Positions 28,288 through 28,331 of a stretch of 64,000 bases of DNA are shown here, one piece after another. Each line of letters starts with the position of its first letter. Position 1 is the stretch's first letter. This DNA comes from Escherichia coli O127:H6 str. E2348/69 (GTDB lineage: Bacteria > Pseudomonadota > Gammaproteobacteria > Enterobacterales > Enterobacteriaceae), in the NCBI RefSeq assembly GCF_000026545.1, contig NC_011601.1. The stretch is one strand, 5' to 3'. The notes beneath the pieces are model-generated. The model ran no database searches. It had not been told where the DNA came from and worked only from the letters and a program-made list of their open reading frames with translations. The translations under genes were made by a program, and so were the position numbers.

Positions 28288-28300
28288 TGAAATGAGTGGT

Positions 28301-28327
28301 GCCGGATGGCGTGATGTCATCCGGCGA
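28301..28327. terminator. hairpin between convergent ybeL and rihA
   Basis: inverted repeat gccggatg...catccggc in the 44-bp gap. Confidence 0.4.
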
Positions 28328-28331
28328 GTGA

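Follow-up and report, generated by a model that had tools for sequence, protein, structure and literature searches.

The 44 bp that separate ybeL from rihA in Escherichia coli E2348/69, an O127:H6 EPEC strain of phylogroup B2, probably represent the block-free state of an old presence/absence polymorphism in this convergent spacer. In block-bearing genomes, a set of accessory genes that includes an Hsp70 system stands at the same place. The polymorphism is of the replacement type, 44 bp against 7,976 bp, and not an insertion into a surviving target, because the 44 bp are missing from block-bearing genomes and homology stops at both stop codons.

The ybeL-rihA junction and the K-12 block

We analyzed a window of 64,000 nucleotides (the whole stretch of DNA, from contig NC_011601.1). 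Positions 27700-29400 match E. coli E2348/69 at 100% identity. Open reading frames and annotation bear out the predicted arrangement, with ybeL (+) and rihA (-) convergent and a stop-to-stop spacer of 44 bp (Table 1). leuS is the upstream neighbour of ybeL, and the genes upstream of rihA are gltL-gltK-gltJ-gltI. YbeL matches Pfam DUF1451 (E 7e-50) and is 100% identical to K-12 YbeL; RihA matches IU_nuc_hydro (E 4e-106) and is 98.4% identical to its K-12 counterpart. LeuS is 99.8% identical to K-12 LeuS over 860 aa (tblastn), and the mechanically called leuS reading frame (24988-27711) is too long at its 5' end.

Table 1 Features at the ybeL-rihA junction of E2348/69 (positions in the window)
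Feature	Position	Strand	Description
leuS (leucine-tRNA ligase)	24988..27570	-	left-hand conserved core gene; annotated in E2348/69
ybeL	27805..28287	+	left boundary gene, reads towards the spacer; 160 aa, DUF1451 zinc-ribbon protein
last 73 bp of ybeL	28215..28287	+	small allele-linked divergence patch adjoining the junction
44-bp spacer (block-free allele)	28288..28331		not present in block-bearing genomes
degenerate REP-type palindrome	28300..28326		predicted hairpin at the 3' ends of the two convergent transcripts
rihA (pyrimidine ribonucleoside hydrolase)	28332..29267	-	right boundary gene, reads towards the spacer; 311 aa; annotated
gltL	29385..30110	-	final gene of gltIJKL, the operon upstream of rihA; right-hand conserved core gene

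The K-12 gene order given in the original prediction is exact. Between the same two stops, MG1655 carries 7,976 bp with all seven genes, ybeQ-ybeR-djlB-ybeT-ybeU-djlC-hscC. The block is missing from E2348/69, as was claimed: tblastn detected none of the seven genes anywhere in the 64-kb window. Homology to K-12 ends exactly at both stop codons, the 44-bp spacer shares nothing with the block ends, and no block remnant is left at the junction. The 44 bp, hairpin included, are also absent at either block end in K-12 and in E1V33 and E. whittamii, two divergent Escherichia lineages with the same block ends as K-12. The description of the junction as a clean empty site for a variable block holds insofar as no remnant is present and the presence of the block varies across the species E. 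coli. However, a spacer that block-bearing genomes do not possess is not an unoccupied insertion target, and no target that was kept, split or duplicated at both ends, as expected for a mobile element, was found.

The block encodes the Hsp70 HscC together with two J-domain partners, and in addition two proteins each of the DUF1266 and Sel1-repeat types; its Pfam content is limited to Sel1, DUF1266, DnaJ and HSP70. The block differs from a genomic island in having no mobility genes and no flanking repeats. Its G+C content is moderately low (46.9% versus 50.5-52.8% in the flanks). A search of PADLOC-DB for anti-phage defence, using the seven block proteins and a 412-aa protein from the Salmonella locus, returned only a chance-level match of 19 bits.

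We profiled the junction in 5,426 complete E. coli genomes. ybeL and rihA are contiguous in 980 genomes, and this junction occurs in 962-968. Block DNA was detected in 4,449 genomes and at least 80% of the block in 3,663; the remaining 977 contain no block DNA anywhere. About 18% of complete E. coli genomes are without the block, and about 82% carry it whole or degraded. An assembly or scaffolding artefact is a negligible possibility: 962-980 independent complete genomes share the junction, among them three assemblies of E2348/69 or O127:H6 at 100% identity, and the block is nowhere to be found in 977 genomes.

The 44-bp form of the junction occurs in about 891 genomes (at least 95% identity), and a 39-bp form occurs in 76, including the commensal HS, a phylogroup A strain. 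Among phylogroup B2 strains, NC101 and ATCC 25922 ("Seattle 1946") are both block-free. EC958, of ST131 and also B2, still has the block, even though its flanks are 99.3-99.4% identical to the E2348/69 window. The lack of the block does not simply mark a phylogroup, since B2 and A each include both alleles. Our search of the literature on the locus and on a link between hscC and phylogroup B2 found no paper describing this polymorphism.

The block of EC958 is a 5.2-kb form with an internal deletion from ybeQ into djlB, shared by 566 genomes. EC958-type E. coli and E. marmotae have independent-looking single-module blocks (ybeT-DUF1266-djlC-hscC) with remnants of ybeQ and djlB. The duplicated block module is prone to internal deletion.

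The window also contains other differences. A gene for a 625-aa rhomboid-family intramembrane protease (33056-34933, +) lies between gltI and lnt; K-12 has IS5D in this interval instead, the HS gene is frameshifted and the EC958 gene is intact. The protease gene adds another presence/absence difference, roughly 5 kb away from the ybeL-rihA junction. ybeF, which encodes a LysR-type regulator of 317 aa in K-12, is reduced to two short fragments in E2348/69 (about 13840-14163, -) and is truncated and frameshifted in EC958. An Rfam scan of the window at gathering thresholds identified the sroC sRNA between gltJ and gltI (31536-31698, -), a cspA-type thermoregulator leader at cspE (10487-10935, +) and six tRNA matches (42159-42749, -), all of them expected for the region.

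The palindrome in the 44-bp spacer

A hairpin of the form gccggatg...catccggc had been predicted between the two stops. Both arms are present (28301-28308 and 28318-28325), and folding confirms the stem-loop and extends it to an 11-pair stem (28300-28326). For the plus-strand RNA, the centroid structure has a free energy of -19.5 kcal/mol, and the minimum free energy of a 64-nt stretch is -20.1 (z -2.15). The minus-strand hairpin has a free energy of -14.8 kcal/mol (z -3.23). The palindrome reads TGCCGGATGGC GTGAT GTCATCCGGCG.

This hairpin shares with REP/BIME elements its wholly extragenic position inside the spacer of two convergent genes, its GCCGGATG head and its ATCCGGC tail, which together form a stem-loop, as in the REP consensus. 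The pattern GCCGGATG-N3-30-ATCCGGC occurs once in the 64 kb, where 0.02 occurrences are expected by chance. A search of the same 64 kb revealed four degenerate REP-like sites elsewhere (near 34992, 42033-42068, 51378 and 62346). The head, TGCCGGATG..GCGTGA, agrees with the REPs of orthologous spacers and with the Y-type REP consensus, TGCCGGATGCGGCGTGAACGCCTTATCCGGCCTAC. The E2348/69 palindrome differs from REP/BIME elements in being near-perfect, single and outside any BIME cluster. The GTAG/CTAC foot, the RAYT recognition site, was not found; the palindrome is flanked by GTGG (5') and GAGT (3') instead. Because this foot is missing and the palindrome measures only 25-27 nt against about 35 nt for a full REP, we classify the hairpin as REP-derived or as a degenerate REP, and not as a canonical one. 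We also considered and rejected the idea that the spacer is the REP of the djlC-hscC spacer left behind by two deletions: only the REP cores are alike and the flanks mismatch.

Like the intrinsic terminators that convergent genes share, the E2348/69 hairpin is G+C-rich and follows directly after both stops. Unlike them, it has no U-tract on either strand. The hairpin could be chiefly a functional bidirectional terminator or another cis-regulatory RNA under selection instead of a decayed REP. A stem that is stable on both strands, its conservation (at least 95% identity) across about 890 genomes and the fully Watson-Crick stem of the HS-type variant would all agree with this. However, a terminator scan did not call the hairpin because neither strand has a T-run, and no family matched in an Rfam scan of the spacer region at permissive thresholds. 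The stems of the 44-bp and 39-bp forms differ only by a one-sided change (G.U versus A-U), which gives no covariation, and the head matches the REP consensus and the REPs of the orthologous spacers. We consider a selected terminator or regulatory RNA unlikely, and retain the reading as a decayed REP.

REP stem-loops shield the 3' ends of mRNAs from exonucleases and can damp read-through between convergent genes. By analogy with REPs, the ybeL and rihA transcripts may share a single 3' stem-loop that would act as a stabiliser or a damper of read-through.

The locus in other Escherichia, Salmonella and the wider family

The block is present in Escherichia E1V33, E. whittamii, MOD1-EC7003 and E. 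marmotae. The divergent Escherichia lineage L005 is block-free; its flanks are about 94-96% identical to E. coli, and its 39-bp spacer is almost identical to that of HS. In S. enterica subsp. enterica, the order is ybeL, a Sel1 protein, DUF1266, DjlB, DUF1266, DjlC, HscC, a 412-aa protein and rihA. Amino acid identities between the Salmonella and K-12 blocks are 83% for HscC, 54% for DjlC, 46% for DjlB, 63% for YbeR and 50% for YbeQ. The flanking YbeL, RihA and GltL are far less diverged, at 91-95%. The E. coli spacer between rihA and hscC (83 bp) has its homologue in the Salmonella spacer between the gene for the 412-aa protein and hscC. Since the S. enterica block is syntenic and diverged and this 83-bp homology is shared, the block at ybeL-rihA has a single and old origin.

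The 412-aa protein of S. enterica (8687-9925 of the locus) is encoded between rihA and hscC and has no Pfam or PADLOC hits. Its gene is missing from E. coli, where the rihA stop sits at the position of that gene's stop in Salmonella. Escherichia sp. MOD1-EC7003 has 2.4 kb of extra DNA between ybeL and ybeQ (10578-12916 of the locus), which holds a J-domain gene split into parts of 93 aa and 326-344 aa, and a further gene whose 321-aa product has a predicted signal peptide. The homologues of this product are ybeL-proximal in Superficieibacter and UBA5654 and have no Pfam family.

A scan for YbeL with one genome per species gave 80 loci, in which Escherichia was represented by four lineages, E. 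albertii and E. fergusonii not among them. ybeL and rihA are adjacent and convergent in most Citrobacter, S. enterica subsp. arizonae (S. arizonae below), Kluyvera, Pseudocitrobacter, Phytobacter and many Enterobacter, with spacers mostly of about 40-180 bp, and they nearly abut in two Trabulsiella species. rihA is missing in several genera (e.g. Kosakonia, Yokenella, Intestinirhabdus and Siccibacter) and in some Citrobacter, so that ybeL faces gltL directly.

When the Citrobacter, S. arizonae and Escherichia spacers were aligned, the GCCGGATG REP head started 6-13 nt past the ybeL stop. The block-free spacer of S. arizonae has two REPs in a Citrobacter-like arrangement, and Kluyvera and Pseudocitrobacter spacers contain REP-type palindromes too. 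The spacers of Enterobacter, Lelliottia and Huaxiibacter have a different repeat in one to several copies (ccctctccc..gggagaggg..ggtgagggcatcaggccgc), sometimes with a terminator-like unit. These distributions suggest that palindromic repeats colonise the ybeL-rihA spacer repeatedly.

Several genomes carry cargo at this spot. Between ybeL and rihA or gltL, two Citrobacter have a chaperone-usher fimbrial operon; Leclercia, Klebsiella oxytoca, K. grimontii and Silvania have a two-partner-secretion pair; Enterobacter quasihormaechei has Hcp with an unknown gene; and Superficieibacter and others encode a 318-aa protein for which a signal peptide is predicted. The convergent spacer is a hotspot, a recurrent site of gene gain, because unrelated cargo occupies the same spot in other genera.

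A more far-reaching interpretation, to which we give very little weight, would make the spacer a family-wide site of cargo exchange. The REP-bearing null allele and the HscC block would both be kept in Escherichia and Salmonella by selection linked to ecotype or lifestyle and not by drift, and REP-directed recombination (of the RAYT or IS110/IS621 type) may seed the capture of fimbriae, two-partner secretion, Hcp and the Hsp70 block. A REP at the ends of cargo in other genera would favour REP-targeted insertion; none was found at any examined locus.

Origin of the two alleles and their probable exchange

E2348/69, HS and L005 have spacers that align over their full length, non-REP parts included, and are one homologous sequence. 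Because they are homologous throughout, the block-free allele of Escherichia arose or was retained once; it would then have been passed around.

Whether this allele descends from an ancestral enterobacterial REP spacer or from a deletion within Escherichia is a close call, and we lean slightly to the former. Most other Enterobacteriaceae have a short spacer filled with REPs, which favours reading the block-free site as primitive. The same reading is favoured by the lack of any block trace at the junction and by signs that the Salmonella block was gained by import. A REP at the same position is weak evidence of orthology, because palindromic repeats colonise the spacer repeatedly, and the non-REP parts of the E. 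coli spacer gave no convincing alignment with Citrobacter or Salmonella.

Parsimony within Escherichia favours loss: the block, with the same ends throughout, is present in E. marmotae, E. whittamii, two further Escherichia lineages and most E. coli. Loss is also favoured by the block-free L005, which by flank identity is nested among the block-bearing Escherichia lineages and closer to E. coli than they are. It is possible, at rather less than an even chance, that the Escherichia ancestor had the block, that one lineage deleted it, that a REP settled or stayed there, and that recombination spread the null allele to the E2348/69-type and HS-type lineages. The identical block ends (E1V33 included), the diverged syntenic block of S. 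enterica, the retention of the block by EC958 between flanks nearly identical to those of the window, and the repeated colonisation of the spacer by whichever palindromic repeat is active in the host would all fit such a history. However, neither block end has left a trace, the flanks of the spacer palindrome are unlike those of the sole REP inside the block (in the djlC-hscC spacer), and the position and orientation of the REP are as in Citrobacter and S. arizonae. In addition, the block-bearing Salmonella lineage is the one with an outlier ybeL, which points to import.

The case for import in Salmonella comes from divergence along the flanks. Block-bearing S. enterica and block-free S. arizonae are 94-98% identical in the distal flanks, but only 82-86% close to the junction (the final 300 bp of ybeL and the initial 600 bp of rihA). 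We interpret this gradient as the probable signature of allele import by homologous recombination, with crossovers inside ybeL and rihA. The junction-proximal part of ybeL in S. enterica is an outlier, with 76-78% identity to all other taxa, and this points to S. enterica as the lineage that gained the block by import.

Within E. coli, the evidence for recombination consists of few SNPs and post hoc statistics, and the patterns fit exchange. The SNP density between HS and K-12 is 0.47% far left of the junction, 1.3% in the adjoining 6.5 kb and 2.5% in the first 4 kb to the right. The flanks of E2348/69 and EC958 differ by about 0.5%; five differing sites lie in the last 73 bp of ybeL and four in the preceding 1,428 bp. 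Of the nine differing sites in the 1.5 kb of left flank nearest the junction, five are in this patch (binomial P 3e-5, post hoc). The divergence profile of E2348/69 against K-12 has no spike at the junction. Taken together, the patterns in E. coli and Salmonella point to a swap of alleles between lineages by homologous recombination, which would use crossovers in the flanking core genes and would involve no integrase, transposase or site-specific element.

We regard the locus as a hotspot with an ordinary accessory-gene polymorphism that public annotation already shows, and not as a new kind of element. Strain-specific replacement segments of the backbone are familiar from the K-islands and O-islands of K-12 versus O157, and from the integration hotspots of E. 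coli pan-genome studies. The ybeL-rihA locus resembles these island segments in having two unrelated sequences at one backbone position, no mobility genes, a patchy distribution among lineages and unrelated cargo in other genera. It differs from them in that one allele is only 44 bp long, and the other is an old, internally duplicated block that also occurs in S. enterica.

According to a review (PMC8215388), HscC works with DjlB and DjlC, has cadmium and UV tolerance phenotypes in K-12, is sporadic among prokaryotes and has probably spread horizontally. Nothing of this system is present in E2348/69, which by inference lacks whatever HscC contributes. The same third Hsp70 system (HscC, DjlB and DjlC) is missing from the roughly 18% of complete E. 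coli genomes that are block-free, NC101, ATCC 25922 and HS among them. Phenotypes of hscC described in K-12 therefore cannot be assumed in these strains, and the practical consequence is small. For the family, the locus offers a tidy case of an accessory block without mobility genes that was apparently moved by homologous recombination in its core flanks, with a parallel polymorphism in Salmonella and unrelated cargo at the same spot in other genera.
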